DNA from: a virus
Reading direction: 5' to 3' (one strand)
Virus record (IMG/VR): IMGVR_UViG_3300049617_000088
Coordinates: 31,714-95,713 of that record
Length of the DNA: 64,000 nucleotides
Shown one piece after another: positions 10,818-63,614 of the stretch. Both the position numbers and the translations under genes were made by a program. The notes below the pieces were generated by a model. That model was given only the letters and a program-made list of their open reading frames with translations. It was not told where the DNA came from and did not search any database. Position 1 is the first letter of the stretch; every line of letters begins with the position of its first letter.

Positions 10818-10848
10818 AACTATAAGGTAGGAGCGTTTTACGATGGGT
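10818..10848 (-). promoter_or_regulatory. Bipartite motif copy 1 (ACCCATCGTAAAACG-N9-TATAGTT)
   Basis: One of eight co-oriented copies. Confidence 0.75.
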
Positions 10849-10885
10849 AGAATTTTATAACTTAATTTTTAGGGCTGCCGAATGT

Positions 10886-11305
10886 TTAGCAGTTAAAAGA
10901 AGATGTGTTCCAGCCACAATCATCCATAGCGCGAATCAGCGGTCCAGTGAGATCATATACTTCTACCAAAGCATGTCCATGACTTTGGGTAATCTCACCA
11001 GCTTCACGAAGCAACTGAGCGGCGGCAGCCACTTTCTCTTTAGCTTGATCTGACCAAACATTGAACTCAGCCTCTAACTTGGTTAGCTTCTCTTCAGCTT
11101 CAACTTCGGAACAAAGACTGATAGAATCCACTTCTTCTATCTTGCCCTTCTTATAATAGTTGGTAGTCCATTGAACAAGAATCTTTCCCTCTTTGGGAGA
11201 CTGAGCTACGACAATTCCTCTAGTGGAATTTTCTTCATCAAGATTATATTTCTCTAACGACTGGTCAAGTAAAACAACTTTATCATTAATTTCAAATGTT
11301 TTCAT
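10886..11305 (-). CDS. W-x-S-S-x-x-C family paralogue
   Basis: Ends AMDDCGWNTSSFNC. Confidence 0.7.
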   Translation of the reverse strand: MKTFEINDKVVLLDQSLEKYNLDEENSTRGIVVAQSPKEGKILVQWTTNYYKKGKIEEVDSISLCSEVEAEEKLTKLEAEFNVWSDQAKEKVAAAAQLLREAGEITQSHGHALVEVYDLTGPLIRAMDDCGWNTSSFNC

Positions 11306-11748
11306 CTTAACTTTCCTTCATTCTTCAATTGTCTATATGTTTTATGTGGAACCCAGGAACCATCCCTCAAACGATATCCCCAATCCCTATCACGTCCCGA
11401 CGTAAATACTAATGCCCAAACCTCGCCACTAATTAGTGTCAGCTTGTGAACATCCTCCGCTTTATGAACTATTACATCGCCGGAATAATAGGTCTTAAAC
11501 TGAGAACCCACGAAGTCAGGAGCATAGCTAGTTTGTTCTTGATAGGCTCCCTCTAGAATAACACTAGAGAAGTCCCAAGGATGGTCATGCATATCAGCAT
11601 CTAAATCTGATCCCATAATCTGATGGATATAAACAGCTCGCCAGGGAGTCTGCAACAAACGGAAACGTCGAAAACGAACCTGACCATTCTTGGCAACAAT
11701 CTCCTTGACCAAGAAAAGCTTGCGAATAATTTTTGTGAATAAACTCAT
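11302..11748 (-). CDS. Cupin-fold protein
   Basis: HDHPW...S.ILEG.Y.E...H...WG pattern. Confidence 0.65.
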   Translation of the reverse strand: MSLFTKIIRKLFLVKEIVAKNGQVRFRRFRLLQTPWRAVYIHQIMGSDLDADMHDHPWDFSSVILEGAYQEQTSYAPDFVGSQFKTYYSGDVIVHKAEDVHKLTLISGEVWALVFTSGRDRDWGYRLRDGSWVPHKTYRQLKNEGKLR

Positions 11749-12155
11749 ACGTCTTCCTCTGGGAAACTGAGAGCTTGTTGTAGCTTTCGATCTAGATCGT
11801 GTTTCTCACATAGAGTTACAACCCAACCACCGCTACGACGAGAACCTTTCTCACCACATCTCTCGCAGATATGAAAGCTCATATTCTCTGCCAGCGCGAT
11901 TGCACCACTGATGTAGGGAGTCTCTTGATTCATATAGAATCGGAGACCACCGAATTTTTCCTTCACTTGGGAACAATATACTTCTCCACGAATCTCTTCA
12001 GGAAGATTCATGATCTTATGCTCTAGAATAAAACAGAGACCATGAACTAGTTTGTCCCAACCATCTGGCAGAGAGAATCCACTACGGGGATGCTCCCTAA
12101 AAAGAGTAGGATATTTACTTTGAAATAGATTAAATTTATCTTTATAGTCACTCAT
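11745..12155 (-). CDS. Conserved phage protein with C-terminal Zn ribbon
   Basis: QVKEKFGGLRFY, CERCG...TLCEKH. Confidence 0.65.
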   Translation of the reverse strand: MSDYKDKFNLFQSKYPTLFREHPRSGFSLPDGWDKLVHGLCFILEHKIMNLPEEIRGEVYCSQVKEKFGGLRFYMNQETPYISGAIALAENMSFHICERCGEKGSRRSGGWVVTLCEKHDLDRKLQQALSFPEEDV

Positions 12156-12484
12156 AGTTCGTCTCTAAACTTTAGAATTACTTCATTGCTGATTTTATAA
12201 CAGAGAACGGCTAATTGATCGTAATATTCAAGAGTTAAATCTACCACCTTTTCAATCTCTTTCCTAGTAGCCATAACTCTAACTGGAATCATTCTCTCTC
12301 TAAAAAGCTCACCAGTTGCAGGATGAATCCATTGACCGCGAGCTGGAGCCATTACCGTTAAACCACCAGTAATGACCCTAACTTTGGCGTCCCAAACACG
12401 ATGATACCTGGTAGTATAATATCTACCAGGTCTCAATCTACGTTCAGTTGGTACTAGGATTTCCCATATTCTTTTGGTGGTCAT
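12152..12484 (-). CDS. Hypothetical protein, possibly PII/DUF3574-like fold
   Basis: GGLTVMAPARGQW...E...Q.AV pattern. Confidence 0.45.
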   Translation of the reverse strand: MTTKRIWEILVPTERRLRPGRYYTTRYHRVWDAKVRVITGGLTVMAPARGQWIHPATGELFRERMIPVRVMATRKEIEKVVDLTLEYYDQLAVLCYKISNEVILKFRDEL

Positions 12485-12640
12485 GATTCTTTTCAGCTTG
12501 CTGAATTAAACGAAGACGTAATTCGAAATGCTTCTTTTGCTTCTCGTACTTCTTAAGTCGTTTGTTGATTCGGTTAAGTCTATCTTGAATATGTTTCTTC
12601 TTTTTTTTCCAATCATCAATTACTTCTTCAGGCACTTTGC

Positions 12641-12940
12641 TCATGGCGGAAATGGTTTCGCTTTTAACGGTAGATCTATTGTAATATAAATTGGTTTTAT
12701 CTCAAGAGATTTAAGATCAGCTTGATACGTTAGGACAGGTACGATCCAATCATTTTCATCTATGTCTAATAATAATGCATCAGCCTCTTTCTTGGAAAGA
12801 AATTTAGCTTCAGCTAAATCTTTAGTAAAAAAGTGCTGCTGCAACTACTCCTTTAGAAGACCACCATAATGGTATCCAGCTCTATAGAATAATTTCTTTT
12901 TAATGTCAACTAAAATATAATGTTTATTTATCTTTTTCAT
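12641..12940 (-). pseudogene. Hypothetical protein interrupted by in-frame TAG at 12845-12847
   Basis: MKKINKHYILVD...GLLKE*LQQHFF continues in frame. Confidence 0.55.
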
Positions 12941-13930
12941 GCTCACAACATTCATCATGAACTTCTACGTGTTCGACATGCTCGTCTTGGCAAGTTTTCT
13001 CATGACATTTGTGATGAAATTTGGAGTGCCACCACACATGGAGGCGACGAAAGAACATTCCAATGAAAGGAATCATCGCCATAACGGCTAGAGTCTCATC
13101 CATACACCAATGAAAAGGCATAATCTATCTCCTCAATATAGCATCGCTTCTTTAACTGCATCGTCAATCAAATCATCTTCCCAACAACAAACGGTTTTGA
13201 TACACTTCCTGAATCTCTTTTCATTCTCGCAGGCATCGCCCCATTTGGCTTCATAAACGAACTCTCCACCTTCAGCATAAAGACCATCTCTAATATGATC
13301 CATGCCTACTCGGAGCATCCAAGCTTTAGCTTTGTAGATATCCCATTTTATTTAATCCGCCACAATCCAACGAGTTTTTCCAGACTTCATCTTGATCTTT
13401 TTAAAGGTACCGATAAGGAATCCATCATGTTTAATACCGCTGAAATGAACTCTCAACTCCGCATAATTGCTAGCGTCGAATGATTGATACACCAACCAAT
13501 CATTAATACTGTCACACGATACATCACTTTTATAATCCTGGATTTCAAAATCAACCGTGTCATGCACACTGAGCTTACCACCACGTTTGAGTTCGCCTAT
13601 CTTAAGAACAAGTCTAGTATTAATCATCGCCGCGACCATAGCCTATGTGATGTAATGGATTGTCATCTAGATCACCCAACGATTGTAAATCCATTTTGTT
13701 TAGCGCCTCGGCTTCTTTTTCAGCAATAGCCTCTTGAATAGCTTCTTTGCGCATCTTTCTCGTTTCTTCTTCTCTAAACTGTTCATTAAAAAAGTCACTA
13801 GCCTGCAAAGTATCACGAGGTTCAATTGCTTTTAAAGCACGATCAATTTCCGCCAGCTCTTGCATCAGAAGAAGTTTGCGTTGAATAAGCATCTCGACTG
13901 TTTTTGATTGAGACATATGATATATTCCTT

Positions 13931-14004
13931 TGTCTCTCCGACAGGACTCGAACCTGTATAAAGCAGCTTAGAAGGCTGCCGCCCTTCCATTAGACCACGG
14001 AGAG
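13931..14004 (-). tRNA. tRNA-Arg(TCT); CCA not encoded
   Basis: CTCTCCG/CGGAGAG acceptor, GCAGC-CTTCTAA-GCTGC anticodon arm, GTTCGAGT T-loop. Confidence 0.92.
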
Positions 14005-14096
14005 TCGCGAGACAACCTAATCTCTATAAATTGGTTGTCAAGCCCTACAGGGCGCCTGCCAGCCAAATAATTGATAAGCTGGTTATATTTAATGTG

Positions 14097-14675
14097 ATGA
14101 GTAAAAAAGACTATACAAATTTAAAAGTAAATAGATTAACTTTTATTAAGGCAACTAACAAAAAGAGTGGTGGTAAAATTGTTTGGGAATTACTTTGTGA
14201 ATGCGGAAATATCACATATGCTATTGTATATAAAGTAACATCTGGACGAACTAAAAGTTGCGGATGTTATGCTTTACAAGTAGCCTCAAAAATTGCCACT
14301 AAGCGCGGATTAGCCAATAGAAAATACCCTCCTATTATAAGCAGTGCCCGACGAGTATGGGAGTACTATAAAGATGGATGTGATTTTGAAACATTCTTTA
14401 AACTATCTCAATTGTCCTGTGATTATTGCGGTAGAAAACCATATAGAATATTTAATATTGGATCGAAACAACGTAAAAGTGAGTGTACGAGTGACTTCCA
14501 AAAAACAGAAGGAAATTTTATATACAACGGTTTAGATCGTATTGATAGTTCAAAAACTCATACACCAGATAATGTGGTTCCATGTTGTTGGGATTGTAAT
14601 GATATGAAAAAAGATCGTACACGTGATGAATTTATATCACATATAAAACGTATACATACTCACCTTACCCCTTGA
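14097..14675 (+). CDS. Free-standing HNH-type endonuclease
   Basis: CECGN...SCGC N-terminus, CDYCG, NGLDRIDSS..H...NVVPCC..CN; paralogue of 46513..47214. Confidence 0.85.
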   Translation: MSKKDYTNLKVNRLTFIKATNKKSGGKIVWELLCECGNITYAIVYKVTSGRTKSCGCYALQVASKIATKRGLANRKYPPIISSARRVWEYYKDGCDFETFFKLSQLSCDYCGRKPYRIFNIGSKQRKSECTSDFQKTEGNFIYNGLDRIDSSKTHTPDNVVPCCWDCNDMKKDRTRDEFISHIKRIHTHLTP

Positions 14676-16173
14676 CAGTACAAAGGGGCATGAGTTTAGC
14701 CACTACTCTAGCAATCCCTGCCTCTTCAATAGAGTTGATTACTGGAGTAATCGGCTTGTAAGCATAAGGCGCCTCTTCTTTAATTCGAGCCTTATACTTT
14801 TTGAGAATGTCTTTCCTTAATTGCATCTGAGGTGACTTAGGATCTATCGCCGTCACCAATCGAAGTGTCTCTGTTTCTTTATCGAATATATCATCCGAGA
14901 CATGAGATGCTTCACCACGAGGCATCATCCTTCCAGCACCATGACAAGCACTAGAAAGTGCTTCCTCATTACCAGTTCCAGTCAATAGATAACTAGCACT
15001 TCCCATCGAGCCAGGAATGATCACAGGTCGACCCATCCAGTCAGATTCAGTCAATGGTCCCTCAGCAGGAGTTGCCCCTTTTCGATGAAGGAAAGAACCC
15101 TCCCGTTTGAAAACAAGATTGTGGGGAGCGTCATAGATTAATCGAAAATCAATCTCAATTCCTAACACCTCCTGAATAGCTCGTACCGCCATTAATCCTA
15201 AAAACAAACGGTTAGCAAAGGCGAAGTTGGCTGCATTATACATGCTATCCAAGTAGAATTCGCCTTCCTTCTGATACTCGCCGGACATAGGAAGAACATA
15301 GAAATCATTCTTCGGATGCTTAATGCCATGAGGAAATAACTCTCGGGCACGATCCATGAAGTGACCGCCCACAACGTGACCTAAAGCCACTGAACCAGAA
15401 TGAATCATGATGGCAAGATTGCCTTTGGTCAGGTTCATCTGACGAGCAGATTCACCACAAACAATCTCATCAATCTTTTGCAGTTCCACAAAATGATTAC
15501 CACCACCTACACAACCAATCTGCGGGTCACGACCATCCACTTCACCAGAAGATTGAATGAACTTCTCAAATCCAAACAATCGTTTGGTTTCAAAACCACC
15601 ATGATTGTTGATTCTATTCAAATCATCGGCTTGAGTTCTGGCATCATAATACTTGTAGATGCCAGTACCTTGATTGTCTTTGGAGTGACGTAGAAGACCG
15701 GGCAATCCATCGCGCAAGACAGCTTCTCTTTGTTGAGGAGACATAGGAATATCTCTTTGACCCTGAAAGAAAAGGGCGCGAAGCTTCTTTTGAATAGCAT
15801 CCCAATGATCATCCAGTTTGCTAACAGGCAAATCAGTGGCAAGCAATCGCATTCCACAACAGATATCATTTCCAATAGCCTTAGGAACAACGAACCCGTA
15901 AGCCTCCGCCACCGTTCCAACAGGTACGCCAGAACCTTTGTGGAAGTCGGGAGTCAGAACCACTCGGTTGATTCTAGCATCCTTATCTAGGAAAGTGGAT
16001 TGGCTAGCATGAATATCACGAACGGCTCGTTCAACATCAAGGAATCCAAACAGTTCTTCAAATGCATCGTTCTCAACGAAGACATCTTTGTTGGCAAAGA
16101 GCTTGACATCGAGATTGAGATCATTAGTAATCTCGCAGCAGGCATCAGAGGTTCTTTTGACTTTATAGTTCAT
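14665..16173 (-). CDS. rtcB: RtcB-family RNA ligase
   Basis: PDFHKG, NDICCGMR, GGGNHF, IHSGS, HN, HRKGATP, IPGSMG, SACHGAGR, EEAPYAYK. Confidence 0.95.
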   Translation of the reverse strand: MNYKVKRTSDACCEITNDLNLDVKLFANKDVFVENDAFEELFGFLDVERAVRDIHASQSTFLDKDARINRVVLTPDFHKGSGVPVGTVAEAYGFVVPKAIGNDICCGMRLLATDLPVSKLDDHWDAIQKKLRALFFQGQRDIPMSPQQREAVLRDGLPGLLRHSKDNQGTGIYKYYDARTQADDLNRINNHGGFETKRLFGFEKFIQSSGEVDGRDPQIGCVGGGNHFVELQKIDEIVCGESARQMNLTKGNLAIMIHSGSVALGHVVGGHFMDRARELFPHGIKHPKNDFYVLPMSGEYQKEGEFYLDSMYNAANFAFANRLFLGLMAVRAIQEVLGIEIDFRLIYDAPHNLVFKREGSFLHRKGATPAEGPLTESDWMGRPVIIPGSMGSASYLLTGTGNEEALSSACHGAGRMMPRGEASHVSDDIFDKETETLRLVTAIDPKSPQMQLRKDILKKYKARIKEEAPYAYKPITPVINSIEEAGIARVVAKLMPLCTVKG

Positions 16174-17321: not shown

Positions 17322-17476
17322 TATTCTTTCCTATTCAATTTATTCGATTGTCGGAGAAGATAATCATCCTGGGATGCATGGTCAAGTCTCCGACAATTTA
17401 TACGGTTGGCAATCTTTACTAATTGCCAACCATCTCTCGACAAACCAATGGGGATCTATAGGGGAAGTAGAATATC

Positions 17477-18187: not shown

Positions 18188-18197
18188 TAAATTCCTG

Positions 18198-18611: not shown

Positions 18612-18620
18612 GAGATACTT

Positions 18621-23198: not shown

Positions 23199-23504
23199 TT
23201 ACTGACCATCAACCGCATCATCGGGAGGCGGCGCAGGAATGGTAGTTGGCTCCGCAACAGGAGCAACTTTGAAGATGCCACCATGAGCACCTTTCCGAAC
23301 ATCGACATTCGGATAACCATCGAAAAGAAACTTGAGAGTCGGATACAACTGGGGACCTGTCATTCCGTATTCCTTGGCAATATCACCTGCCAACTTGGTC
23401 GCCGGAATCTTCTCCCCAGGCTTAATAGCCTCGATCCGCTCAGAAGCCTTCTCAAAGATGATACGAATTTTGGCAAGACTATTTTCAATATGAGCTGAAT
23501 TCAT
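23199..23504 (-). CDS. Putative winged-helix protein with Rrf2-like wing
   Basis: Helix-turn-helix pattern followed by VRKGAHGGIF. Confidence 0.5.
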   Translation of the reverse strand: MNSAHIENSLAKIRIIFEKASERIEAIKPGEKIPATKLAGDIAKEYGMTGPQLYPTLKFLFDGYPNVDVRKGAHGGIFKVAPVAEPTTIPAPPPDDAVDGQ

Positions 23505-23566
23505 TGATATGTAATTCCTTTTTAGAAAGGTTGAAGAAATGAGACTGTATTGGCTACGGGCGCCTC

Positions 23567-23597
23567 ATCTATAGGCGCCCTCCGTTTTACGATGGGT
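23567..23597 (-). promoter_or_regulatory. Bipartite motif copy 2 (N9-TATAGAT), overlapped by a GGGCGCCT/AGGCGCCC hairpin
   Basis: Exact 15-mer match. Confidence 0.75.
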
Positions 23598-38109: not shown

Positions 38110-39781
38110 CCCAATTACTTAGCAGCGTCCTGCTTTGTAGTTGAATCAACATCCTTTGACATCTCAGCTCCAATCGTGAGCTTCAATTCAAATGTGTACT
38201 GTTCCTCATCCGAAACCTGGAGAGCAACCCAAGAGTGTTCTCCATTAAAATAGGCGGATGGAAACTTATGACCCACTGGAAACTTTCCGATCGGAACGAC
38301 CAGTGTAACATTATAAAATACAAAGGATGCAGGACCACCTTCGTCCCAACTCTCCCAATCAAACAACTGCTGCTCAAGCGTCATAGGTTCCATGTTTATC
38401 TCCAGAATGAAAATGAATTGGTTTTACGATGGTCTTTAAAAATCTTATCAATATCCACGCGATCATCTGGGCTATGACCCAGTGCTGCTGCCAAACATTT
38501 CTCAGCAACATAGATGAGCTTAACGCTCTTGTCCTCATCACCTAGAGCCTCTTCAATGCTAACCGGCTCCCAACGAGCTTCATCATCATACGGAACAATC
38601 TCTCCGCTATAGGAATCAGCGTCGGCTCCTCCAATGTCTCTAACGAAATCGATGAAGGCATCGGCATCAAACTCTTTTTCTAAGAGAGAAAGACCACATT
38701 TGCCACAGTATTCCATTGGTTCTCCACCCAACTTGGAAGACATATCCAATGTCTTTTCGCAACAAGCCTTGAGCTTAACCTCGGGCTCCGACATAAAAGC
38801 ATTCTTGAAAAAGGAAGCTAGATCCACAAAAGCTTCTTTGGTTGAAGAGAACTTCTTATTAGAATGGAAGGGAACATATCCCAGCATTCCGCTCTCGGCA
38901 TATCCAAAATTAAGTAGAAATGTATACGCTTTCATGTGTGTCCTTTTGATTTACGCCACGACTCTGTCGCTCCAACTGCATCCAAACAATGATGGAAATT
39001 AGTAGAGTTACAATGCGCCCACCGATGTCCACCATCCCAACGAATGGTATTCAGTGTGTATCCTCTGAGCCAATCTTCTACCATTTGGTAGTCCACAATC
39101 TGACTGCAACCATCGTAGAACATTACCTTTTTGCCATTGATAAAAGCATATCTGATATCAACACAGACAGGTCGATGATCTACTTCACCAATTTGGATGC
39201 CCTTCCCCATGGAAACTTCTTTCCAATCAGGAACACTAATCTCGTCACGCCTCGGCTCATGATGATGAGCCTTCCAAAGCATAAACTGTTCCTCATTAGA
39301 AGCTTCCACTAGGAAGACTACGTCCTCGAAAAGCTTCTCATCCAACTGGTTGATTGGATAGAGAATCGCTGTCGACTTCGGCTTCTTTTTCTTGAAGACT
39401 GACTTTAGCATTTTCGATTCGTTCCCTTAGCTGACATGAGGTTAGTAGATGATTCTGCCCTGCGTCCATCAAAGTGTCGGCATCCTTTGCTTCCATGCCC
39501 GTTGCCATAGTTATCCACTTACCATTGAAAAAGATGGTGTAGACGCGCTTGTCTCCGAATCGAGTTCTGATCCTAATCATGGCTTTCTTCCAAACGGCAA
39601 AGGTCTCTTTGCTAGTTCTTTCTTCTGTTCTTCTAGTCCATCATAAAGATTTTGTCCAGCCTTAATAGCTAGGAAAGCATCTTCTCCACTCCAGCCCTTG
39701 GCTATGATGGCTTTATGAATAGCATCTATGGATGAACCATTCTCTAGGGCTTCGAAGACTGCTTTAATTAACTCGTCCATC

Positions 39782-40123: not shown

Positions 40124-40647
40124 CTTACACCAGACTTTCAAGATACTTAGAAAGAAAATCTTCAGCGAACTTCTGGGCGTTTTCCACCGACCAGTTATCT
40201 TTGTTCAGATAGAAACGAGTTTCATCCAAGAAGGTTTCCTTCTCCAAGACATCCACACCATGAAGAGTAATTTCCCAATTATAAGGACGTCCCCAGGTCT
40301 TGTTCACCTCTTCTAGAAGAAGATGAAAAGTCTCATGGTCTCGTTTAAACGAGGCTTTGAAAGTTAGGAAGCTACTGTTTTTTATCTGAAATATCTTTCC
40401 AAGGATTGTTCATGTAATATCTCCGTAGTTTACTTATATCGTGCTGGGGCAAACTTGCTTTGTTTGACTACCACTTCGTTGCTCATTTGAATTGCCCACC
40501 GCACCATAACATTTACTTGAGAGGGGAGGAAACCGTCCTCTAACATAATCTGTCGAATTTTAGAAATGGATAACCCTTTTAACATTGCCTTTGAAGCTTG
40601 CTTAACTGTTACCTCGATTGTGTTGTTCGCCATCTTGTCTTCCTTAC

Positions 40648-40678
40648 ATCACTAGGGTGCAACCGTTTTACGATGGGT
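40648..40678 (-). promoter_or_regulatory. Bipartite motif copy 3 (N9-TAGTGAT)
   Basis: Followed by AAGGA and ATG at 40633. Confidence 0.75.
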
Positions 40679-44835: not shown

Positions 44836-45132
44836 TTAGCAACGCATCGAAGAAGCAGACCAGCCTGCAACAGAAAGAGCATTCATCAGTGGGCGCATAG
44901 CATCATACATCTCGTAATGATATGTCCTGAGGGGTGCCACTTGAGTCTCATCATCAGCATCATCTTTATAAGAAATGATACCATCATCATAGTCTCGTTC
45001 AGTAGCTTCTCCCTTGAGACCAGAAGCCTTCACCAATTCATCTGCTTCAGCGAGTAGTTTTGCCGCCGACTCCATCTTCTGGCGAACTTGAGACTTCAAA
45101 TCATTAAATTCTTTATCCAACTTATCGACCAT
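44836..45132 (-). CDS. W-x-S-S-x-x-C family paralogue
   Basis: Ends ALSVAGWSASSMRC. Confidence 0.7.
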   Translation of the reverse strand: MVDKLDKEFNDLKSQVRQKMESAAKLLAEADELVKASGLKGEATERDYDDGIISYKDDADDETQVAPLRTYHYEMYDAMRPLMNALSVAGWSASSMRC

Positions 45133-50103: not shown

Positions 50104-51546
50104 TGATATCTCTCTTACAGGTAAGTGGGCTCGTGTGGTTTTGGACAAACCTTTGGAACGACAACCGTTGGATGCTGCGGAAACATATAGTAAGCATCGC
50201 GATGGTGCATGGCAACCCCTCCGATAATGATTCCGAGCATCAAACAGAATATGTACCTCATGCTGCCTTTTTAGATTCCATCCAGTCCCGAAGGTAATCC
50301 AATCGAATCTCCCACTCATGTCGGATTCGATCCAAACTCCAGGCATTGGAAGTCTTCTCCCGAAGATCATTGCTCCAATGTTTGATATCTTTAGGAGACT
50401 TGAATCGTCCAAAATGAAGGCGAGCCCTAGACTCCTCATCCCAATAAGGATTGTTGGTGATATTGTACATCGTAGATTTAGGATGATTATCCTTAGGTTG
50501 CATGTGCAATTCAATTGCACGAACTCTAATTTTTCGTGCCATTGCTGCAAAGAAGCCTCCAGGCGATTGCCAACCCTTTTGATGAATCTCTGGAGTTTTC
50601 ATTCCCCAATCTTTCTTGGTCAATCGAGAGAAGTTATTCATCTCTACGATATGGGAAATTTGATGCGTACCACGAGGAAAATCTACCGGGAACATAATTT
50701 GTTTCTTGGTAGGAATATAGCCAACCTTTTCTTCTACATCTTCATAGAAGGAGTAATCCTTAATCCGAGGATCCATTTCCATCAAAGAAAGGATAAATCC
50801 CTCAACCCCTGCCTCACAAGGAGAAACGGGTTTCACGTGAGTCGGACCAGATTTCTTAACCATCATGACTAGGCGATTCCGAAAGGATTGGTTGCCGTGA
50901 TACATGCTACATCAATAGCATTTTCTGCATTGAGACGATCACCAATCAACCAGTAATATATGCCGATAACGAACAGCGCTGTAACTTGCTCTTGTTTAGA
51001 AAGGACAGTCATTTGATTTTCTTTAACAGTTCAGGGTAAAGTGCGTTGAAACGTTCAGATTCTTTTTGTTGTTCAGTTTGAGCATGACTAACCGAAGTAG
51101 CTCGCAAAACTCGCAGAGCTTCTAGCAAGGCTTCTTTACCAAGAACGATTGTTATTAATTCCGATTCTCGTTCTAAAATAGTTTTCTTGAGAGAAGATAC
51201 CTTACGGCGAGCCTGCGCCTCATCAGCTTCGGCTTCTTTAATTCTGTCCAGCAATTCCTGTTCCCGAGGAAGCATGAGATAATTCTTTCATGGGAAGTAT
51301 ATCCCATTTGATGGTGGTAGAACGTAATCAACTGTCACCCCTTCTTCGTCAGTTAAGGGGCAGAGAATCTGATGTGTTCCCATATCGCAACCCCAATCTG
51401 AATCAGGCTCCCATGATAGTCCGTCTTCGGCATCATAGACTTCCTCTAATCGAGAATCCAATTCCTCGAAAGAAGGCGCTTCAACTACTACTGTTTTAAC
51501 TTCTCTAACCAGCCTAGCCAATTCAACTTTGAACTTCATATCCTGC

Positions 51547-51577
51547 ACCTATGGTGACGAACCATTTTACGATGGGT
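51547..51577 (-). promoter_or_regulatory. Bipartite motif copy 4 (one mismatch; N9-CATAGGT)
   Basis: ACCCATCGTAAAATG; ATG 7 nt after the box. Confidence 0.7.
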
Positions 51578-52450
51578 CAAGCGGCACGGCAAGAACCGTG
51601 CCAGCTTCATTCTTCTGTTTCTTCCTTAACCGGAGTGATCAATACGTAAACGAAAACATATACCATGACACTTAGTATCAGGCTACCAGGAGCCACCAGC
51701 TCTTTTCCTGCCAAGGCAAGCCAAAGATGGATTGCCATTTGGATCACAAAAGAGATGATTAGCGCATGGAGGATTCGTTTCATATTGACCGGCTTAATTG
51801 GTTCCGGCAAAGAGACGCTCCACATGAGCCGTGCGCTCTTCAGGAGTCAGACCATCCCAAACTTTGACACCAGAATCGGTGGCATTGATCTCTCGCACAA
51901 TCTCCGTGCCATAAGAGAACCATTCCTCCTCCGCCTCTCGGTCCCAATTCTTGTATTCTACCTGCCTGGTGGCTACAACAATCTTGTTCAGCTTCTCGCC
52001 CAGCTTACTCATACGACCCGTGACTTGGCAACGATACATTTGATTATCCTTTAGTTATTGAGCCTTAGCTCGATTAGATTTGACCTTTATCATCAACAGC
52101 TTCGATGTGAATGACAACATCCCCATCTTTATTATGATCCGCAAACTCATCAATCTTATCCCAAGTGACCTGATAACTTTTAATCTGTAAACGTAAATGA
52201 CGAATATAGATTAAAAAAATTATATTACTAATAATCAGTAAACCAATCATGTAATATATCATTTGGAACTTGGCATCCAGAATCTCATTCCAATGATTGC
52301 ACAAACGGCACAAATCAAAAGAACTTTAAACTCTATATAATAACCTTCGGTATGCACCGCTTGCTGGATGGTATACAAGCAAGCCATTGTCACTACTAAT
52401 CGAATGGCAAACCATCCAGCTTTTTGGATCATCCAGGCTATCATTGCTTC

Positions 52451-54228: not shown

Positions 54229-54865
54229 TGTCCTGCTCCTATGCACTCGCGTTATGCGATTCAGGTTTAATTGTTTAATTGTTAATAACTGCTTCTCAGT
54301 CAACTATTACTATCTCTTCCACCATATTATTTGACCTTAAATTTCTCTTGGAGACGAAGGAACTCTGCATATTCTGGATCAGATTCAACCTTAGCCTTGG
54401 TTGAGTAGTCCTTCCATTCAGAAGGCATAACATGAGCCAAACCATATCGAAAAAACTTTACCTGTTCTTCTAATTTTGTTGCTCCGTTATCGTCCCATTT
54501 ACCATCATAGCCAGCAGATCGTTTGCGTTCACTGGCGTCATCCAGAATCAAATTGATTACTTTATCAAAATCCATGTTCGATAACGTAAGGCACTTCGGT
54601 GGGCTTGTCAAGGGGACGGGCTTTTTATCTTCACCAACTTCACGAATCTCCCAAGGAATTGGGAACATCGACTCCAACAAACTTGCACCAGGAGCCAGAT
54701 GTTCTAGAACCTTTTTTAGCTTCTTCCAAAGAAAGAAGCCAGGGATCGCTCATGGGTTGATTATAATTAGTCCAACACTTTCTTTCCTTGTGCCAAACAT
54801 TGTAGTGAACCATGTTATTTCCTTAATGAAAACGCTGAGAGACACCGAACCCAATGACTTCCTAC

Positions 54866-54896
54866 ACCTATGGTATCACACCGTTTTACGATGGGT
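54866..54896 (-). promoter_or_regulatory. Bipartite motif copy 5 (N9-CATAGGT)
   Basis: Exact 15-mer match, intergenic. Confidence 0.75.
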
Positions 54897-56526
54897 ACGT
54901 TTTACAGTCAGGGTGTCATTTATTTTTATGAATCTCTGCTAGAATCTCTCGCAGCCTAGCTTCACTAAGGTCAAGTTCTTTTTCCAAAGAACGATTGTAT
55001 TCCTGACAATTATGGAGCTGACTATTTTTAGCAATACAGCCGCATGAAAACAAAAGTATTCCCAGAAATAGGAATTTCATATCATACCGCCAGCCACCAA
55101 AACAGTACGTTTATGATACTCCAAAACGAATAGACGAAACTGTTCTACATTCTCATGGAGCTTAACTAAGTCTTCAGTGTTAGGACCACAACCATCTTCC
55201 CAACAAGTTCGAGCATGAACATACTCTTCGGTCTTCTTCAGAAGATCATTGAGCATCTCCTCGAACTTGTTGTCGGGTTTGACGTCTGGATTAATTACCG
55301 GATACATTTAAAAACTCTTCTTCCTTAAGATGGCGAATCCATCGCCTCATGATGTATCCAATCCATTTGAGTTGTAAAGTATCAAATGGATGTCGTTTAC
55401 AACCAAGAGTAATTAGTATTCCCAATACAGAAAGCAGATGAAGTGGAATACAAACGATATCTCTTATCAATCTAAATTTTAGATTCAGATTCATTTTAGT
55501 TCGTCTCCCCATAGTACCAACGATGCATGTAGCTGTCAATATCCCAGCCACTCGATTCAATCAGATTTTGAATCTCTAGACAATGCTTCTCAATCTCCTG
55601 AGTCTCATGGTCTTCGAAATTCTTTTGATACATCGCCTCTACCAAAGGATAGAGAATCTGATACGGTACTTTGTTATTAGTGGTAGCCATTAGCTTGAAC
55701 CAAAACCTTCCGGGCTTGAGAATACAAATCCTCCCAAGTGGTTGAGAAGCGATCTGTTTGCGCAGCCCACTCTTTCTTGAATTGAGTTAGACTTAGGCGC
55801 CGACCAATTGATCGATGATCAATCATCGGATTAGAAAGACGTGCTGGACGAATTGATGCAATACAAGGAAGCTTTCTATAATCATCAGTGCCTCGCAAGG
55901 TCTCGGAATCATAGAATTTTTCTTTGTATTTAATGAAAGCATGAACGGGACAGCCCCATAGTTCAAGACCTTTGAAGGTATGGAAGGAGAGGTAAGCCCA
56001 CATAAAGCACCTACCCCAATTGATCTCGTTCGGTGGGATATCTGGAAAGTAGAACTCAGTTACAAACTTGGGTTGGAATTTCTGAATTTTCCTCACGACC
56101 CATTTCCTCCAGCACCTGATCCCAATTCCAACCACAAGCTTCAATGTAAGCGTCAATGGTATCTGCCCGCTCCATTGCCAATTCATCTGTTGAGAGGTCG
56201 CCCTCAAAGAACAACTTCTCCAAACCCATTGACATTTGACTATACGGTACCCGCTTCATGTTCAATGTTTTCCTTCAGTTTCGATCCGCTTGAGATATTC
56301 CTTCTCAGCAGTTTTCAGGTTATCAGAATAGGAAGTCCAATATTTGCAAGAAGGTTCCCAAACACCATCGACCAAATGCATGTTCTCGCGACAAGCCTCG
56401 AATGGTTCTGATCCATACTTCAGCAAACGAAGTACATAACGATACTTAGTAAAAGCATTCTTATACAGGTGAGACGACTTGAGAATCGTCTCGTCTTCTT
56501 TGATCGTTTCCATTGTCGCCCTCCGT

Positions 56527-56557
56527 ATCTGTAGGGCAAACCCGTTTTACGATGGGT
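56527..56557 (-). promoter_or_regulatory. Bipartite motif copy 6 (N9-TACAGAT)
   Basis: Overlaps the stop of 56547..56849; GGAGG and ATG at 56513 follow. Confidence 0.75.
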
Positions 56558-57374
56558 ACTTTTCCGGTGGAGGTGTAAATGTAATCTCGTCACCCTCACT
56601 AGGTTTATCATTGTGCCCGACAGGAACCAACATTAAAGAATGCAAACGATTGATTGGTGTGGCTTTCTTTACAAGATTGGCGATGTAATTAGTGCCCAAC
56701 ATTGTTGGGTATAGAATTATCGCAAGTGGCCAAAAGATTCCGATGAGCACCCACGGCACCTCATTCTCGTGAGGATCAAAAGCCTTGGCAACGCCAGTGG
56801 CTATCCCCATTCCCAACAGATAGCCAAGAACACACAATGCGATAATCATCTGCCTCGATACCTTTCAATCGTATTGTTTAGAAACGAATTGATTGCAACC
56901 GCAGCCAGAGCATAGAGATCATCCTCCGCCCTCGCCTTGCGATTGAAGAAGTTTTGAACGAACCTTCTGTCTTCATCAGGACAATCTAATCCCTTTAGCT
57001 CTGCCATGACATACTGGCTAAGAACATAGAGATCCTTAGTTCGCTGATCACAACTCCAGTTGTCAGACTTGCCAACTTTTAATTCGGCTGCCCAAATTTT
57101 GTACCAAGTTTGGTGTGGAGGTGTTCCTACTTCCGTGGGAAGTTCCCAATCCAAATCTTCTTTAACTGATTTGGCGGTGTATTGATCGGGCATAGCTCTT
57201 GGATATTCCACGGGTTCTCCGAATTTAGTTTCGTTACCTTCACCCCCAGAACCAACCACATTTAGTTGGACCAGCACAAGGAGTCTTGCCGCAAAAACGA
57301 AAGACCATCCACGGCTTGGAATCTTCTGATTGAGATTCCTTGTGTTTCTTACCAGACATTGATTGCCTTTTAAA

Positions 57375-58256: not shown

Positions 58257-58568
58257 TTACTTCTGCTTGCGACAAGCTTTGGTGTCTGCCAGGCAATTCT
58301 TCAGCTTGTTATACTCAAGCTCTGCCTGAGCCTTAACAGCAGTCAAAGCCTCATCAGCCGAATGCTTGAGCTGCTCCTTGTAAACTGCCATCTGAGTAGC
58401 AGCCTCATCAGTTGCCGTCTCACGAACACGGGCAAGTTGCTCGCCCAAGTCTTCCTTCTTCTGCTCAATCTGCTTCTGAGCGTCAGCCATGCCACGCTCA
58501 TACTCGCTATGATTAGTAGCGCAAGCAGCCAGTGCAACCATCCCAAGTGCAAAAATAAAATTCTTCAT
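58257..58568 (-). CDS. Putative coiled-coil lipoprotein
   Basis: Lipobox LAAC. Confidence 0.65.
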   Translation of the reverse strand: MKNFIFALGMVALAACATNHSEYERGMADAQKQIEQKKEDLGEQLARVRETATDEAATQMAVYKEQLKHSADEALTAVKAQAELEYNKLKNCLADTKACRKQK

Positions 58569-59007
58569 GGTACGAAAGTTCCTTTGTTAGAGATAATGCT
58601 AAGCTATTACTTTCATTGGGAAGACTACTTCCTTTCTTACAATTACAGTTGGTACACATCGTTTGAAGATTTTCAATCTGGTTGGTACCACCCAATGATT
58701 TCGGAATGATATGATCCTTAGTCATAAGAATCAAATTTCCACTATCTCCATGCGCAAACAGATTCAAATGCGGAATGATATCCTGTGGCACAAGACCATT
58801 CTTACGTGCTTGATATTCCAAGGAGAATGTTTTCCCAATCAAACCACACGAAACACACTTGAGATTACGTTTGAAACATTCCAAACGTTCGCTGTTCATG
58901 TTAGAACTAACCATTCCCTGCGGAGTATCAAAATCCATTCTTGGCATACCAAAACCAATGAAGGGAAGAATATACTCCACAGGAAATCTTGCTAGTACGA
59001 TCATCAT
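58513..59007 (-). CDS. HNH endonuclease-domain protein
   Basis: CVSCG, TKDHIIPKSLGG....NLQTMCTNCN. Confidence 0.88.
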   Translation of the reverse strand: MMIVLARFPVEYILPFIGFGMPRMDFDTPQGMVSSNMNSERLECFKRNLKCVSCGLIGKTFSLEYQARKNGLVPQDIIPHLNLFAHGDSGNLILMTKDHIIPKSLGGTNQIENLQTMCTNCNCKKGSSLPNESNSLALSLTKELSYHEEFYFCTWDGCTGCLRY

Positions 59008-59016
59008 TCCAAAACC

Positions 59017-59614
59017 TTAGTTGTTAGAAGAAACTAATTTACACAAACTAATCCACTTATTAAGTGGAAAACTATATTTAGATCTATTACAATCTAAACA
59101 AGAAATGTTTATGTTTTCATTAACATTTTGACCGCCCAAACAAACAGGAATTATATGATCTAAACTCTTTGGATTATCTTCTGAAAATAATCTAGTACAA
59201 TAGCAACACGCAGTTGCATGCACATATCTTCTAGAGACTTCAAGTAGAGTTATAGAATCAACTTTCCTTTCCCAGCCATCAGTTTGGCGATCTGAACACA
59301 ATGCATGATGTACTATATTTCGTGCTATGTATGAACAATCATCGCACCTCTTATGTCCCGTTCTAAATGGGAAAAATTTATTTCCACAAATCTCACAATC
59401 ATATATAAAATAGATATTGGAATCTTTTTTCTGAATATCCATTCTTAACTGAAAGGAAAATTTTACCTTTCTTGCGAGTCGCCTTTGCTTTTTTCAAAGA
59501 CTTACATTCTTTACAAATGTAATCTAATCCATCAGATTGCTGGCGATTTATAGTAAAATTTTCTTTTATGGATTTCTTTTTATTACAGTTGGCACACACC
59601 TTGTACTTTTTCAT
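59017..59614 (-). pseudogene. HNH endonuclease, probably one gene with a frameshift near 59460
   Basis: Zn finger (CANC...CKEC) at 59399..59614 plus CCYC...LDHIIP...GG....N...SC..CN at 59017..59442. Confidence 0.7.
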
Positions 59615-59665
59615 ACAAAGTATATATCGACTCTTTCCAAGATTAAATTAGCAACATAGAAAGAA

Positions 59666-61171
59666 CTACGCCGATTTACTAACTAGATAGAGTTCACGTC
59701 TAGCTCTAGTAACGGCAACGTAATACAGATTGGCTTCCTCAATCCCCTTAGTGGGGCGATAAGTATCCGTCAACATGAAGACGCGATTGCGCTCCAAACC
59801 CTTTGCCTTGTGCGTAGTAGAAAGAATGACGCGACTGTCATCATCCTTATCCGTGAACAAGTCATTGAGATTGCTCTTGACTTCATCCAGCGTACGAGTG
59901 CCTTCACACAAGGTTTCCAAACATTCCACCTTGTCTTCCAGAATAGAAGGATCGCGCTTGGCTTTTACCAAACGTTCCACCTCAATCGCCTTGTACTCCG
60001 ACAACCATCCCAAGAAAGAATCCACGCTCTTTGCCTTGGATCGCTTGATCAATGACATGAGATTTTTTCCCATATCATTTCCTTGAATATTTGCTGGTAT
60101 TCTAGCCTTGAGCAGATTGAGGCAGCCACGAATCAAAGGCGCATTGGTACGTGAGAGAATGAAATCTCCGGGACGAACCATTGACTCTACCTTCTCACCA
60201 CTAATCTCGGAAACCAAACCCTCCTCTGCATTGGGAGCGTACTGGATATCCGGGACAATCGTTTGCGCCAATTGAACAATCGCCTTGGCACAACGATAGG
60301 TAACACTCAGAGGCAATCGCTTGGAGTTGCAACGAGTGACGATGTTCTGAATGGCATTGGAGTCAGCACCACGGAAACCGTAGATGGCTTGACGTTCATC
60401 ACCAACAGAGATGATGCGACCATTAGCACCGCAAGAGTTGATAGCCAGATTGATCTGCGCAACGTTGAGATCCTGCGCCTCATCAATGAAGACCATCCCA
60501 TACTTGTCGAGCTTGATATCAAGCACGTTCGGGAGCCAGATCATATCATCGAAGTCAATACGATTGAGATCCTTCTTGCAAGCATTCATCACCTTGATGA
60601 TGGTAGTAACGAAAGCTTCGCGAGAATCCTCGCAGGTATCGATCCCATGACGATCCAGAATCGGATCAATCTCTTCGGGAGTCGCTGCCAGATATCCCTT
60701 GCAAAGAGAAACTGCCTTGGCAAGGGAAGCCCGAACCTCATACGTTTCAGGATCCGTTCCACGTTCAGCAGAAACGAATCCTTCCAACTTATTCCCCTTC
60801 TCCTTCTCGATCTGAGCAAAAGGATACGTCCGCTTAGTTGCACGCCAGCCCAGAGAATGCAGAGTAAGAACCGTCACCTTCTCGGGTGCCTTCTTCTCAA
60901 GCTCGATCTGAATCGGCTTGGCGAAAGCGCACATCAAAGACTCGCGACCGGCAGGAACATGATAGAAGCCTTCGACAATAGAAGAAGACTTGCCGCTTCC
61001 GGCGTAGGCATCTACCTGCGTGTTGCCAGTTCCCTTGGCGATATCTGCAAAGATATCGATCTGAAAGTTACTCCACTCACGAACCACTCGCGGAGCTTTG
61101 ACGATAGGAGGCTTGACCCAAGGCTTCTTGGCAGCCGTACCCTTTGAAGCATAGGAGCGATTGTACGCCAT
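59666..61171 (-). CDS. UvrD/Rep-like superfamily 1 helicase
   Basis: AYAGSGKS, TLHSLG, IDEAQD, VGDERQAIYGFRGA, TYRC, STTHKAKGLE, YVAVTRAR. Confidence 0.95.
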   Translation of the reverse strand: MAYNRSYASKGTAAKKPWVKPPIVKAPRVVREWSNFQIDIFADIAKGTGNTQVDAYAGSGKSSSIVEGFYHVPAGRESLMCAFAKPIQIELEKKAPEKVTVLTLHSLGWRATKRTYPFAQIEKEKGNKLEGFVSAERGTDPETYEVRASLAKAVSLCKGYLAATPEEIDPILDRHGIDTCEDSREAFVTTIIKVMNACKKDLNRIDFDDMIWLPNVLDIKLDKYGMVFIDEAQDLNVAQINLAINSCGANGRIISVGDERQAIYGFRGADSNAIQNIVTRCNSKRLPLSVTYRCAKAIVQLAQTIVPDIQYAPNAEEGLVSEISGEKVESMVRPGDFILSRTNAPLIRGCLNLLKARIPANIQGNDMGKNLMSLIKRSKAKSVDSFLGWLSEYKAIEVERLVKAKRDPSILEDKVECLETLCEGTRTLDEVKSNLNDLFTDKDDDSRVILSTTHKAKGLERNRVFMLTDTYRPTKGIEEANLYYVAVTRARRELYLVSKSA

Positions 61172-61248
61172 GACTTCGATAACCATTATAGCCGGTTGGG
61201 CTATTCCTTTATGTTGAGTGTCAATTGAGAGCTAACGTCGGTTGTGTC

Positions 61249-61279
61249 GTCTGTGCCTTCGATGCGTTTTACGATGGGT
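61249..61279 (-). promoter_or_regulatory. Bipartite motif copy 7 (N9-CACAGAC), inside the 3' end of 61201..61701 and upstream of the helicase
   Basis: Exact 15-mer match. Confidence 0.65.
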
Positions 61280-61725
61280 TGATACGTTGGCTGCGCAGAC
61301 CTACACCAGTCTACATAGTTGCTATGGGCGTCATGCCAATCAGCAACCAATTCATCTTCTGGAAGATTGTTCGTGACATCCAAACTAATCAATTGATTAT
61401 GAATGAAGGGAAGTAAAAACTTCTTCATTCTTTCTCCGAGCTTCCATTCAATCTCTCGGAGACGAGCTTCTGCTTTTTCTTTCGCGTCGATACAATCTTC
61501 TTCCGTTTCCAATGGAGCTGGAGGATTGCGAATTACTATCTCCCAAGAAACTAGATGACGACCATCCCAATCCTTGTTGACATAAGAAGCGTTGGCAGCA
61601 CCGGGAGAAAGCTGGCGCACATCCTTACTTGCTTGTGCCAACAGATCCACTACATCATCAACAGTTAGACGTTCGGATTCTATATTGAGAATTAGTTTCA
61701 TTTGAACTTTCTAAAAAGAATTGAT

Positions 61726-61889
61726 CTAGCACACGGCTGCGAGGTCTTCCTTTACCTTGATCCGGTAATGGATTCGCCGTTTCCTGAAAGTTGGTGGCAG
61801 CCATTTTCAGGCATCATAACTCGCCCAATCATCCTGCCCGACGACAGGACATGCTAGGATAGTTTCGCTTCTCTTGGAAGGCTACTATC
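61726..61889 (-). ncRNA. Candidate structured RNA or cis-regulatory leader
   Basis: Nested helices CTAGCA/TGCTAG, GCGAG/CTCGC, CCTGAAA/TTTCAGG, TCCTGTC/GGCAGGA, TTACC/GGTAA, GATAGT/ACTATC. Confidence 0.5.
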
Positions 61890-62197
61890 AAACTAAGTCT
61901 AATACCATACCTTTAGAATCTGCGGCTTCTTGTGTCCAGCTTTAATTAGCTGAGCAAGAACCTTGTCTCTTACCTTGATGGTAGTAGGGAAATCAAGCTC
62001 ACGTCCATGACAGGATGTGTGTCCAGTTTTGGAATTGATCTTGAAAACAGAATATCGATCATCGTGACCAGCCATGGGATCATACGCGCAGAAAACAATG
62101 TAGCCATGATCCAATCCATCCTTGGAAGGCAGGGCAACAATGCTTTGCCACACTATTGAAATATGGTAGCGATAGCTTTATCTTTTTTCATATCTTT

Positions 62198-62689
62198 TCA
62201 GGTACCAAAAATTCCCTTGAATGTTTTGCATTGAAAACAGATATGCGTTCCATCTTGTTGATCTGCGTATGCAAACTCATTGTAGTTTTTACAGGGACCG
62301 CGACAAGTCGCACCAGGAGTTGATGCCTTAAAAGCAAGGGCTGTATTACAATCCGCTGTTTGCGGATTAACTTCATCACCATTCTCGTTCTTTACTTTGC
62401 GAGAATACACTGTCCAGTACTGAGTATAATCAGATTCATAATTATCCTGGTAATCATTAAAATGTCTGATTACTTTTTTGTAATGTTTCTGGCTAAGGTA
62501 AATATGAATTTGATCACCATATTCTTGTTTCTGCTCATCGTTACTATCCCAATGATTATCAATGTGATCTACAATTTCATCGGCTGCTTGTTTCAAGGCA
62601 GCTTGTTCTGAATCAAAAATGCTGATATTACATTCATTGTCAGAGGGATACTTCCATTCACAGACCCAGACTTCCATTTGAATCTCCAA
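62198..62689 (-). CDS. Hypothetical protein with C-terminal Zn ribbon
   Basis: CRGPCKNYNEFA...HICFQC. Confidence 0.6.
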   Translation of the reverse strand: MEIQMEVWVCEWKYPSDNECNISIFDSEQAALKQAADEIVDHIDNHWDSNDEQKQEYGDQIHIYLSQKHYKKVIRHFNDYQDNYESDYTQYWTVYSRKVKNENGDEVNPQTADCNTALAFKASTPGATCRGPCKNYNEFAYADQQDGTHICFQCKTFKGIFGT

Positions 62690-62700
62690 AAGAAAAGAGA

Positions 62701-62911
62701 ATGCTTATCCGCATCCGGTTGTCTCCTCATGCAAGCATGGGGCTACGCCTTCGCCGCTTCGTTGGCTCTCGCGTTCAACGCCTAAATTGTCCGTAGCAAC
62801 CTTCCGATAAACAGCCTCAGAACTATGAGATTGAAATCATCTCACTCATAGTTAGACTCGATAGCTGGGCTTGGCGAACCATCTCATACTATCGGATAAA
62901 TAAACTTATCC
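62701..62911 (-). ncRNA. Candidate structured RNA
   Basis: TCCGATA/TATCGGA encloses AACTATGAG/CTCATAGTT; GGTTG/CAACC domain; terminal hairpin plus T-rich tract. Confidence 0.45.
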
Positions 62912-62947
62912 TAATTTATTTACCTTTATCCCCGATTCCCTTCCTGA

Positions 62948-63397
62948 TTACGCCGAAGCCGTCGCCTCAGTCTCCGAAGCCGGAACATCACTCCAGCGCT
63001 TGACACCACCACCCTTGCCATTGGTAATGCAGAAGAGGCGCGTACGAGGAGCCTCCGCCGCCTGAAGAATCGCCTTGGTCTTCTTGTCCGTCTTCTGATG
63101 ACGGTCAGCATTCTCGCGAACATAAGCGAGAACCCGCTCACTCAGAGCAGCATGATTGCTCGGCAGAGCATTCAGCTCCTGCATAGCATAGTTGTTGAGA
63201 GCCGGCATGTTGATGTTGACGCCGGGGTACTTGTCGAAGACGGCATTGACCGCCTCCGCAATCGTCTCATCCTGAGTGTCCTTCTCGGCAATGAACTGAT
63301 CGAGAGCCGTCTCACAAGCAGTGAGAGACGCCTCACGGTCAACACGACCAGAAGCAGCGAGCGTAGCAAGCGTAACAGTGAGAGTAAGAGTAGCCAT
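62948..63397 (-). CDS. Putative winged-helix DNA-binding protein; paralogue of 22682..23080
   Basis: AVNAVFDKYP...MPAL...HAAL..R...NGKGGGV. Confidence 0.6.
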   Translation of the reverse strand: MATLTLTVTLATLAASGRVDREASLTACETALDQFIAEKDTQDETIAEAVNAVFDKYPGVNINMPALNNYAMQELNALPSNHAALSERVLAYVRENADRHQKTDKKTKAILQAAEAPRTRLFCITNGKGGGVKRWSDVPASETEATASA

Positions 63398-63496
63398 GAT
63401 GTTGTACCATCCTTTATATACGAAACATTGTATCTTCACTATCCCAACCTAACAAAATGTTAGTGCTGCTAGTTCAGATACGGGTTGCAGACTCGA

Positions 63497-63525
63497 AACA
63501 TAAGTAAGACTCGTTGCGATGTCAA
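63497..63525 (-). promoter_or_regulatory. sigma70-like promoter TTGACA-N17-TATGTT
   Basis: Consensus -35 with 17-bp spacer upstream of 63397. Confidence 0.65.
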
Positions 63526-63583
63526 CCCCGTTTCGGACGAATCGGGGCTAAAGCAGAGCGCGGCTTCTTTCCGCCTTGCTCAC

Positions 63584-63614
63584 ACCCTTACCAACCAACC
63601 GTTTTACGATGGGT
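63584..63614 (-). promoter_or_regulatory. Bipartite motif copy 8 (N9-TAAGGGT)
   Basis: Exact 15-mer match. Confidence 0.7.

Follow-up and report, generated by a model that had tools for sequence, protein, structure and literature searches.

Promoter classes peculiar to a phage, recognised by way of a specificity factor that the phage itself encodes, are a well-known kind of system. The middle promoters of T4 combine a MotA box with a sigma-70 -10 element, through sigma appropriation by AsiA and MotA, and the cascades of SPO1 use the gp28 and gp33/34 sigmas with -35 and -10 consensus sequences of their own. In phiEco32, the phage sigma gp36 and the host core polymerase together recognise the middle and late promoters, which are defined by a single element, AATGTA, centred at -11.5 (PMC12276001). 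The present work deals with a repeated two-part element, a 15-mer followed at a fixed distance by a weaker second box, in a stretch of 64,000 nucleotides (nt), hereafter the window, which covers bases 31714-95713 of the 95,713-bp IMG/VR record IMGVR_UViG_3300049617_000088 (CheckV completeness 21%). Judged from sequence comparison within this contig and with its relatives, the element almost certainly represents a phage-specific promoter class. Its sequence is apparently undescribed, and no description of this consensus was found in the literature on huge- and jumbo-phage promoters and phage sigmas.

As in phiEco32, a small phage sigma-70-family protein would direct the host core polymerase to a phage-only consensus that the host sigma does not use, and the promoters are strongly conserved within the phage. 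By contrast with phiEco32, a strong element lies here in the -35 region and a weak box in the -10 region, and the consensus is unrelated. T4 middle promoters have a phage-specific box at about -30 instead of the -35 hexamer, with a -10-type hexamer at normal spacing, a layout that the present element may share; in both cases the promoters would define a temporal class. Here, however, no MotA domain was found in the genomes searched (see below), the box is 14-15 bp long and invariant, whereas that of T4 is about 9 bp long and degenerate, and the second box is poor as a primary-sigma -10. SPO1 offers two-element promoters with sigma-family spacing, both hexamers being off the host consensus, in a large phage that relies on host core polymerase, but the consensus sequences are unrelated and one sigma was detected per genome here. 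Finally, long, near-identical, co-oriented copies and nested transcription units without evident terminators recall the T7 group, from which the present system differs in that no single-subunit polymerase gene was found on the contig or in the relatives searched, and in that the 9 nt that would match the specificity region are variable in this phage. The geometry of the element, with its start of transcription, could make the system more than a new member of the known kind.

Copies of the element on the contig

Within the window, the 15-mer starts on the plus strand at 10834, 23583, 40664, 51563, 54882, 56543, 61265 and 63600, seven copies being exact and that at 51563 bearing one mismatch; allowing up to 2 mismatches, no further match was found on either strand of the window. 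A shuffled window is expected to contain 0.04 copies, and none of 100 shuffles reached eight. The whole contig holds 11 copies, every one co-oriented with the genes, nearly all of which are on the minus strand, and its top-repeated 11- and 12-mer is, by a wide margin, this motif. Read on the gene strand, each copy comprises ACCCATCGTAAAACG, then 9 variable nt, then a second box of consensus (C)TAnAGnTG, which thus begins 9 nt past the 15-mer. CCCATC occupies positions 2-7 of the element and the TA-initial box runs from position 25, leaving a spacer of 17 nt. Positions 25-32 contain 5.3 bits of information, while 3000 control sets taken at the same distances from real start codons peak at 3.5, which indicates that the second box is a genuine second element. 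Position 32 is a purine in 11/11 copies and position 31 a T in 9/11.

The copies in the window, with the genes that follow them as open reading frames (ORFs) of the given length in amino acids (aa), are as follows.

10817-10848, minus strand: copy 1, 15-mer at 10834-10848 and box TATAGTTG at 10817-10824; upstream of a 102-aa ORF (10495-10803) and of a tRNA-Leu.
23566-23597, minus strand: copy 2, 15-mer at 23583-23597 and box TATAGATG; followed by a 78-nt leader with a strong hairpin, then by a 101-aa ORF (23199-23504).
38420-38434, minus strand: decayed sense-strand copy with 3 mismatches and without a recognisable second box; the ATG of ORF 38115-38393 lies 26 nt downstream.
40647-40678, minus strand: copy 3, 15-mer at 40664-40678 and box TAGTGATG; the ATG of a 67-aa ORF (40430-40633) lies 30 nt past the 15-mer.
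51546-51577, minus strand: copy 4, the sole variant (C14 to T), 15-mer at 51563-51577 and box CATAGGTG; ATG at 51539, 23 nt past the 15-mer, and a strong hairpin that ends 5 nt upstream of the motif.
54865-54896, minus strand: copy 5, 15-mer at 54882-54896 and box CATAGGTG; followed by a small ORF after a 68-nt leader.
56526-56557, minus strand: copy 6, 15-mer at 56543-56557 and box TACAGATA; its TAA (56547-56549) terminates the upstream ORF 56547-56849, and the ATG of an 83-aa ORF (56262-56513) lies 29 nt past the 15-mer.
61248-61279, minus strand: copy 7, 15-mer at 61265-61279 and box CACAGACG; located inside ORF 61201-61701, with the UvrD-type helicase gene (59666-61186) beginning at an ATG 78 nt downstream.
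63583-63614, minus strand: copy 8, 15-mer at 63600-63614 and box TAAGGGTG; followed by about 200 nt without an ORF, then by ORF 62948-63397, and preceded by a strong hairpin that ends 1 nt upstream of the motif.

These data agree with a preliminary description, made from the letters of the window, which had reported the eight 15-mers (one with a mismatch), their co-orientation with the genes, a second box exactly 9 nt after each, with the same strings, one copy that supplies an upstream stop codon (copy 6) and one within coding sequence ahead of the helicase (copy 7).

Translation signals tend to follow the element: a Shine-Dalgarno sequence and a start codon lie within 45 nt of the core in 6/11 copies, versus 15% of random positions (p = 0.003). 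A strong hairpin precedes three copies on this contig, no conserved secondary structure was found in the 15-mer, and neither intrinsic terminators nor sigma-70 sites are enriched around the copies. We propose that each of the 11 elements opens a transcription unit, these units being about 2 to 17 kb long.

Positions 30-32 read NTG in 8/11 copies, which may be due to chance or reflect a start-stop element; at 40647-40654, 54865-54872 and 63583-63590 the second box indeed ends in a start codon followed by a stop (ATG TAA, GTG TAG and GTG TGA, respectively). This NTG was considered as the start of an upstream mini-ORF and rejected, as no ribosome site precedes it. The hexamer TAAAAC within the 15-mer was likewise discarded as a -10 hexamer, its second-position A not being kept in the related fragment G6 (see below). 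The variant base of copy 4 turns TAAAAC into TAAAAT, which together with TTGCCG 17 nt upstream gives a sigma-70-like match (TTGCCG-17-TAAAAT) overlapping the motif (window 51564-51592, minus strand).

Versions of the element in related megaphages

The genes of the contig are small and mostly unknown, and include a UvrD-type helicase, two RNA ligases, tRNAs and other accessory functions. Relatives of the helicase, at about 50% identity, were found on IMG/VR contigs of 354 kb (G1, IMGVR_UViG_3300028735_000003), 359 kb (G4), 447 kb (G3, IMGVR_UViG_3300036715_004471, loci L190-L212, 446-447 kb, complete) and 481 kb (G2, complete), and these four share 23-51 of the approximately 209 crude ORFs of the contig, also at about 50% identity. 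Such large helicase-bearing relatives, together with the shared ORFs, mark the contig as what is evidently a fragment of a megaphage of roughly 350-480 kb, belonging to an uncultured clade. In line with this, a megablast of 22 kb against cultured phages gave no match, and protein-level relatives among cultured phages are distant (identity at most 45%). An exact 15-mer scan of IMG/VR revealed no near-identical relative (29 loci, all single chance-level matches), and an exact 16-mer scan of metagenome contigs returned at least 80 loci, with only single chance-level matches among the matches listed.

Five related megaphages carry versions of the motif that are specific to their lineage and have the core CCCATC in common: G1, G2, G3, the 67-kb fragment G6, and G008 (361 kb, 97% complete). 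The G4 record lacks the whole block of roughly 120 kb, and absence of the motif from it is uninformative. The pattern CCCATC-N3-WAAC occurs in a sense:antisense ratio of 10:0 in this phage, 15:0 in G1 and 9:1 in G6, reversed-pattern controls giving 0. The G1 version, (A/T)CCCATCATGAAAC(A/G), has 16 gene-strand copies, all within 31-81 kb of the 354-kb record, and one chance match on the opposite strand; that of G6, TCCCATC-NNN-TAACGG, has 9 sense copies and 1 antisense. In G008, CCCATCGGTCA is present in 50 copies with none antisense, all in the last 63 kb and reaching a density of one per 350 bp at the contig end. The G2 version, CTCCCATTCAC, shows 48:0 sense:antisense copies when exact and 62:2 with one mismatch allowed, spread over about 100 kb spanning the record ends, and it also occurs in two further contigs at an orthologous place. 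In G3, it is the bare CCCATC that is biased, with 352 copies on the gene strand versus 4 on the opposite one, which makes it the most skewed 6-mer of that genome. Within each genome, copies are restricted to one end, which is accessory and early-like in content. A scan of relatives had been suggested in the preliminary description, where random orientation would have pointed away from a promoter; copies in all five relatives are co-oriented with the genes.

The second box is best documented in G008, whose consensus reads ACCCATCGGTCAAC + 10 nt + (A/G)TAnGTGA + G, with a spacer of 18 nt and about 33 bp conserved end to end. At the level of consensus sequence, this confirms the two-box layout, with statistics far better than those of the present contig. 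The layout is weaker in G1.

Positional conservation points to a phage-encoded reader. This contig and G1 are syntenic, and four orthologous genes have the motif just upstream in both phages, each with the version proper to its own phage, while a fifth motif-bearing orthologous pair links G1 and G6. Copies 1 and 2 of the window have positional orthologues in G1 at 44987 and 50793, respectively. The intergenic flanks at orthologous motif sites cannot be aligned and the motif alone is conserved. That dispersed sites keep their place and yet change in concert argues for selection by a co-evolving reader encoded by the phage.

A further indication of function comes from a 182-aa gene ahead of Ro60, which in this phage has a motif copy upstream, at contig position 12373. 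Its orthologue at locus L342 is preceded by TTGACA-17-TATATT (11/12 consensus matches), ending 60 nt before the start codon, and that at L348 by TTGACG-16-TATATT, ending 51 nt before it. In this phage, CCCATC-17-TACAAT ends 56 nt before the start codon and is followed by a matching leader hairpin and a ribosome site. This register places the first box at the -35 position and the second at the -10 position. Together with the layout in G008, it would be hard to explain unless the element were a promoter. The leader hairpin, with a GGAGA/GGTGA loop, was located at L001:1427-1485 (contig 12285-12343, outside the window), L342:2484-2502 and L348:2958-2974, and is kept in the three phages via compensatory stem changes; at L348 it is followed by a T run with a terminator-like score, and may be an attenuator.

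The motif thus has the two-element architecture of sigma-70-family promoters (16-19 bp spacing), without being a primary-sigma promoter: its first box is CCCATC instead of a hexamer near TTGACA, and its second box, compared as a -10 with TATAAT, has A at position 2 in 10/11 copies but T at position 6 in only 3/11. A sigma-70 consensus scan of 44-64 kb showed no enrichment (51 versus 40 +/- 6). The preliminary description had denied the element sigma-70, sigma-54 and T4-late geometry. Regarding sigma-70, the sequences of both boxes do differ, but the spacing does not, CCCATC-17-TA-initial hexamer being that of a -35/-10 pair. Sigma-54, whose promoters have GG at -24 and GC at -12 (TGGCAC-N5-TTGC), was rightly set aside, no GG-N10-GC pattern being found in the conserved columns, and so was the T4 late type, which has a single element at -10 and no -35, the consensus lacking TATAAATA and two elements being present, although gp55 and gp33 homologues were not searched.

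G2 and G3 may follow a different layout. In both, the start codon peaks 23-24 nt past the core, which often directly adjoins an upstream stop codon; here a -10-like role would suit the core better, unless it does something different. A host alternative sigma, such as a heat-shock sigma-32-type factor, was also weighed. The sigma-32-type -10 consensus is CCCCATnT, which the core CCCAT resembles, and at 23-24 nt from the start codon the core of G2 and G3 does fit a -10 position. However, no conserved -35 partner was found upstream of the core, the extension varies between phages, a difference not expected under a conserved host factor, and in this phage the core aligns with the -35 hexamer rather than the -10; we consider a host sigma of this kind highly improbable.

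Counts of the bare hexamer in G3 bear on two further explanations. On the antisense strand CCCATC was seen 4 times versus about 75-82 expected, and in the structural module (140-290 kb) it is missing from both strands, versus about 30 expected. An RNA-level signal in the 5' untranslated region, either a processing site ahead of each gene or the binding site of a translational regulator, would account for copies that are all sense and near ribosome sites, for the fixed core-to-ATG distance of 23-24 nt in G2 and G3, and for the three copies here that follow a strong hairpin, which could protect an upstream 3' end. Yet an RNA signal is not under selection on untranscribed sense, and the purge in G3 therefore disfavours this explanation, as do the register of the motif with a sigma-70 DNA promoter in relatives and the lack of conserved secondary structure in the 15-mer. 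An RNA-level role appears unlikely.

A DNA-level signal would by contrast suit the strict one-strand orientation in every phage, as well as the 352:4 bias of G3, where the bare hexamer is also frequent in sense within genes. Candidates are sites of strand-specific nicking, known from T5 and phiKMV-type phages, polarity cues for DNA entry or a translocase, and sites that evade Type III restriction through their single orientation. Evasion of restriction predicts depletion, whereas a 10-fold enrichment was seen. More generally, a DNA-level signal leaves unexplained the placement just upstream of start codons, the second box at a fixed distance, the positional orthology and the sigma-70 register, and we regard it as decidedly improbable. 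Separately, it should be noted that in the 80-140 kb block of G3, which is GC-rich (52-59%) and made of tiny genes, CCCATC occurs once per approximately 110-250 bp, in all reading frames.

Candidate readers and the start of transcription

We favour, with a probability of roughly 45%, a promoter class read by the host core RNA polymerase together with a phage factor, most likely a 209-aa sigma. The invariant 15-mer, with its clade-wide core CCCATC, would occupy the -35 place and the weaker box TAnAGnTG, from 17 nt after CCCATC, the -10 place, so that the host core enzyme would gain its specificity from a phage-encoded factor. The best candidate for this factor would be the 209-aa sigma, which has regions 2 and 4 and whose gene would sit, in this phage, on the absent four fifths of the genome. 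Each of the six relatives with a completeness of at least 49% (G1, G2, G3, G4, G008 and G011) encodes one such sigma-70-family protein; it matches PF04542, TIGR02937 (53 bits) and phrog_351, and is 67-74% identical overall, regions 2 and 4 (the DNA-reading helices) being nearly invariant. This near-invariance across the clade fits the invariant CCCATC, and we infer that the region-4 helix differs from that of primary sigmas at the TTGACA-reading residues. We likewise infer initiation at the motif, the identity of the reading protein and the start position from these comparisons. In the vicinity of the sigma gene itself, a conserved block, GTATCAATAA + 4 bases + GTATA, precedes the start codon of the sigma by about 45 nt in G1-G4 (e.g., L133:1240-1326), and may be a third type of promoter or operator that controls the sigma.

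Several observations weigh against this sigma-based reading. The sigma is almost identical in phages that differ in the 8 nt after CCCATC, and sigma alone does not explain the phage-specific extension, which makes a second, faster-evolving factor of the MotA kind a serious rival. No sigma match was found on this contig, which is 21% complete. The second box lacks the last-position T needed by sigma-70 and is poorly kept in G1 and G6, and the start-codon spacing of 23-24 nt in G2 and G3 leaves no room for a -10 box. Moreover, in 6 copies here and in several of G008, 0-3 nt separate the box from a well-spaced Shine-Dalgarno sequence, and the conserved hairpin of the Ro60-operon leader begins right after the box; a start 6-8 nt after the box, as sigma geometry implies, would leave the transcripts of those copies without a ribosome site. 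Either these ribosome sites serve only read-through transcripts, or transcription starts directly after the box, a start for which a T at 31 and a purine at 32 would be suitable.

The rival just named, sigma appropriation or an activator, supposes that a phage protein binds CCCATC-N3-WAAC(G) in place of the -35 contact while the host primary sigma reads the second box. A first box that is bipartite, 14-15 bp long and thus longer than a sigma region-4 site, whose second half varies between phages when the sigma does not, would be expected of such a protein, and this box replaces the sigma-70 -35 hexamer in register. The layout, with a box near -29 and then a -10-like hexamer, is also that of T4 middle promoters. 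On the other hand, the second box ends in TG and not in the T needed by primary sigma, and a search for the MotA C-terminal domain PF09158, covering this contig and five relatives (G1, G2, G3, G4 and G6), gave no match, AsiA not having been searched. Genes exclusive to motif-bearing phages (NUDIX, SpoU methylase, DUF7227, DUF3228 and unknowns) include no candidate DNA-binding protein. An activator thus appears possible, although well short of likely.

A start right after the second box would also be expected of an unrecognised phage RNA polymerase, for which the purine at position 32 would be +1 and leaders would be very short. The approximately 33 bp conserved end to end in G008, the pyrimidine/purine start that T31 and the purine at 32 would make, and the ribosome sites and conserved leader hairpin that begin right after the box all agree with such an enzyme. 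However, the T7-type polymerase family PF00940 had no match on the contig or in G1-G4, two of which are 100% complete (control genomes gave no match either), and the beta-prime family PF00623 had none in G1-G4, although very divergent polymerases or subunits could escape these searches. Among the ORFs of relatives, a DFDGD-type motif was seen only in ligase, DnaE and unrelated small proteins. No large protein with the DxDxD metal-binding signature of polymerases was found in the relatives, nor any two-barrel candidate in the three near-complete ones, and the giant ORFs correspond to baseplate, tail, intein-bearing terminase and ribonucleotide reductase. We therefore hold a phage polymerase to be improbable. 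The preliminary description had proposed a regulon read by a phage-encoded RNA polymerase, sigma factor or activator, and had called for a search for phage sigma and polymerase genes. The promoter regulon is upheld by the relatives, the orthology and the register, and a sigma was found in six relatives; a phage RNA polymerase was not, and is the least likely of these readers. The very short leaders inferred in that description may exist.

Other models were entertained. The first, a MotA-like box combined with a host -10, was set aside for a while over the 23-24-nt distance between core and start codon in G2 and G3. A second model, in which the core is -10-like and transcription starts inside the 15-mer, is weakened by the two-box layout of G008 and by the register at L342 and L348, and is the best fit for G2 and G3 only. 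It is also conceivable, though doubtful, that the CCCATC system is a new way to mark or start early transcription, or to orient DNA entry, in megaphages; its reader would then be a factor or polymerase without detectable relative. A possible start right after the second box, the bare hexamer that seemingly suffices in G3, the purge of the G3 antisense strand and structural module, and densities up to one per 110-350 bp at the genome end would all fit such a novelty.

To our knowledge, hardly any megaphage of 350-480 kb is known other than through metagenomes, and the timing of their gene expression is unstudied. Through its sequence, the motif family gives access to one transcription class in six or more megaphage genomes, and marks an accessory, early-like block (tRNAs, Ro60/Y-RNA and RNA-repair genes). 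The 209-aa sigma is a named candidate reader that can be assayed with core polymerase without phage culture, and the concerted change of sites between phages constitutes a natural experiment on promoter-reader co-evolution. In terms of annotation, the motifs can help to define operon limits and to place the starts of the many tiny genes of these genomes.

Other sequence signals in the relatives

An extended -10-like word, TGATATAT, is enriched upstream of genes in G2, G3 and G4, and also precedes tRNA genes. In G3 an ATG often lies 7-8 nt after this word, the spacing expected of leaderless mRNAs, and leaderless starts seem to be used elsewhere in the clade; examples from 280-446 kb of G3 are found at record positions 416320, 409236, 409117, 408430 and 395838.

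In G1, the terminase large subunit and the ribonucleotide reductase large subunit carry inteins (L166:6453-10454 and L214:303-3788, both minus strand), that of the terminase having LAGLIDADG endonuclease domains. The same genome contains about 45 copies of a word of roughly 23 bases, TATCTTTAGCTAATAAAGCTAAT, all on the strand opposite to most genes, at record positions 491-353057 and clustered at 337-353 kb.

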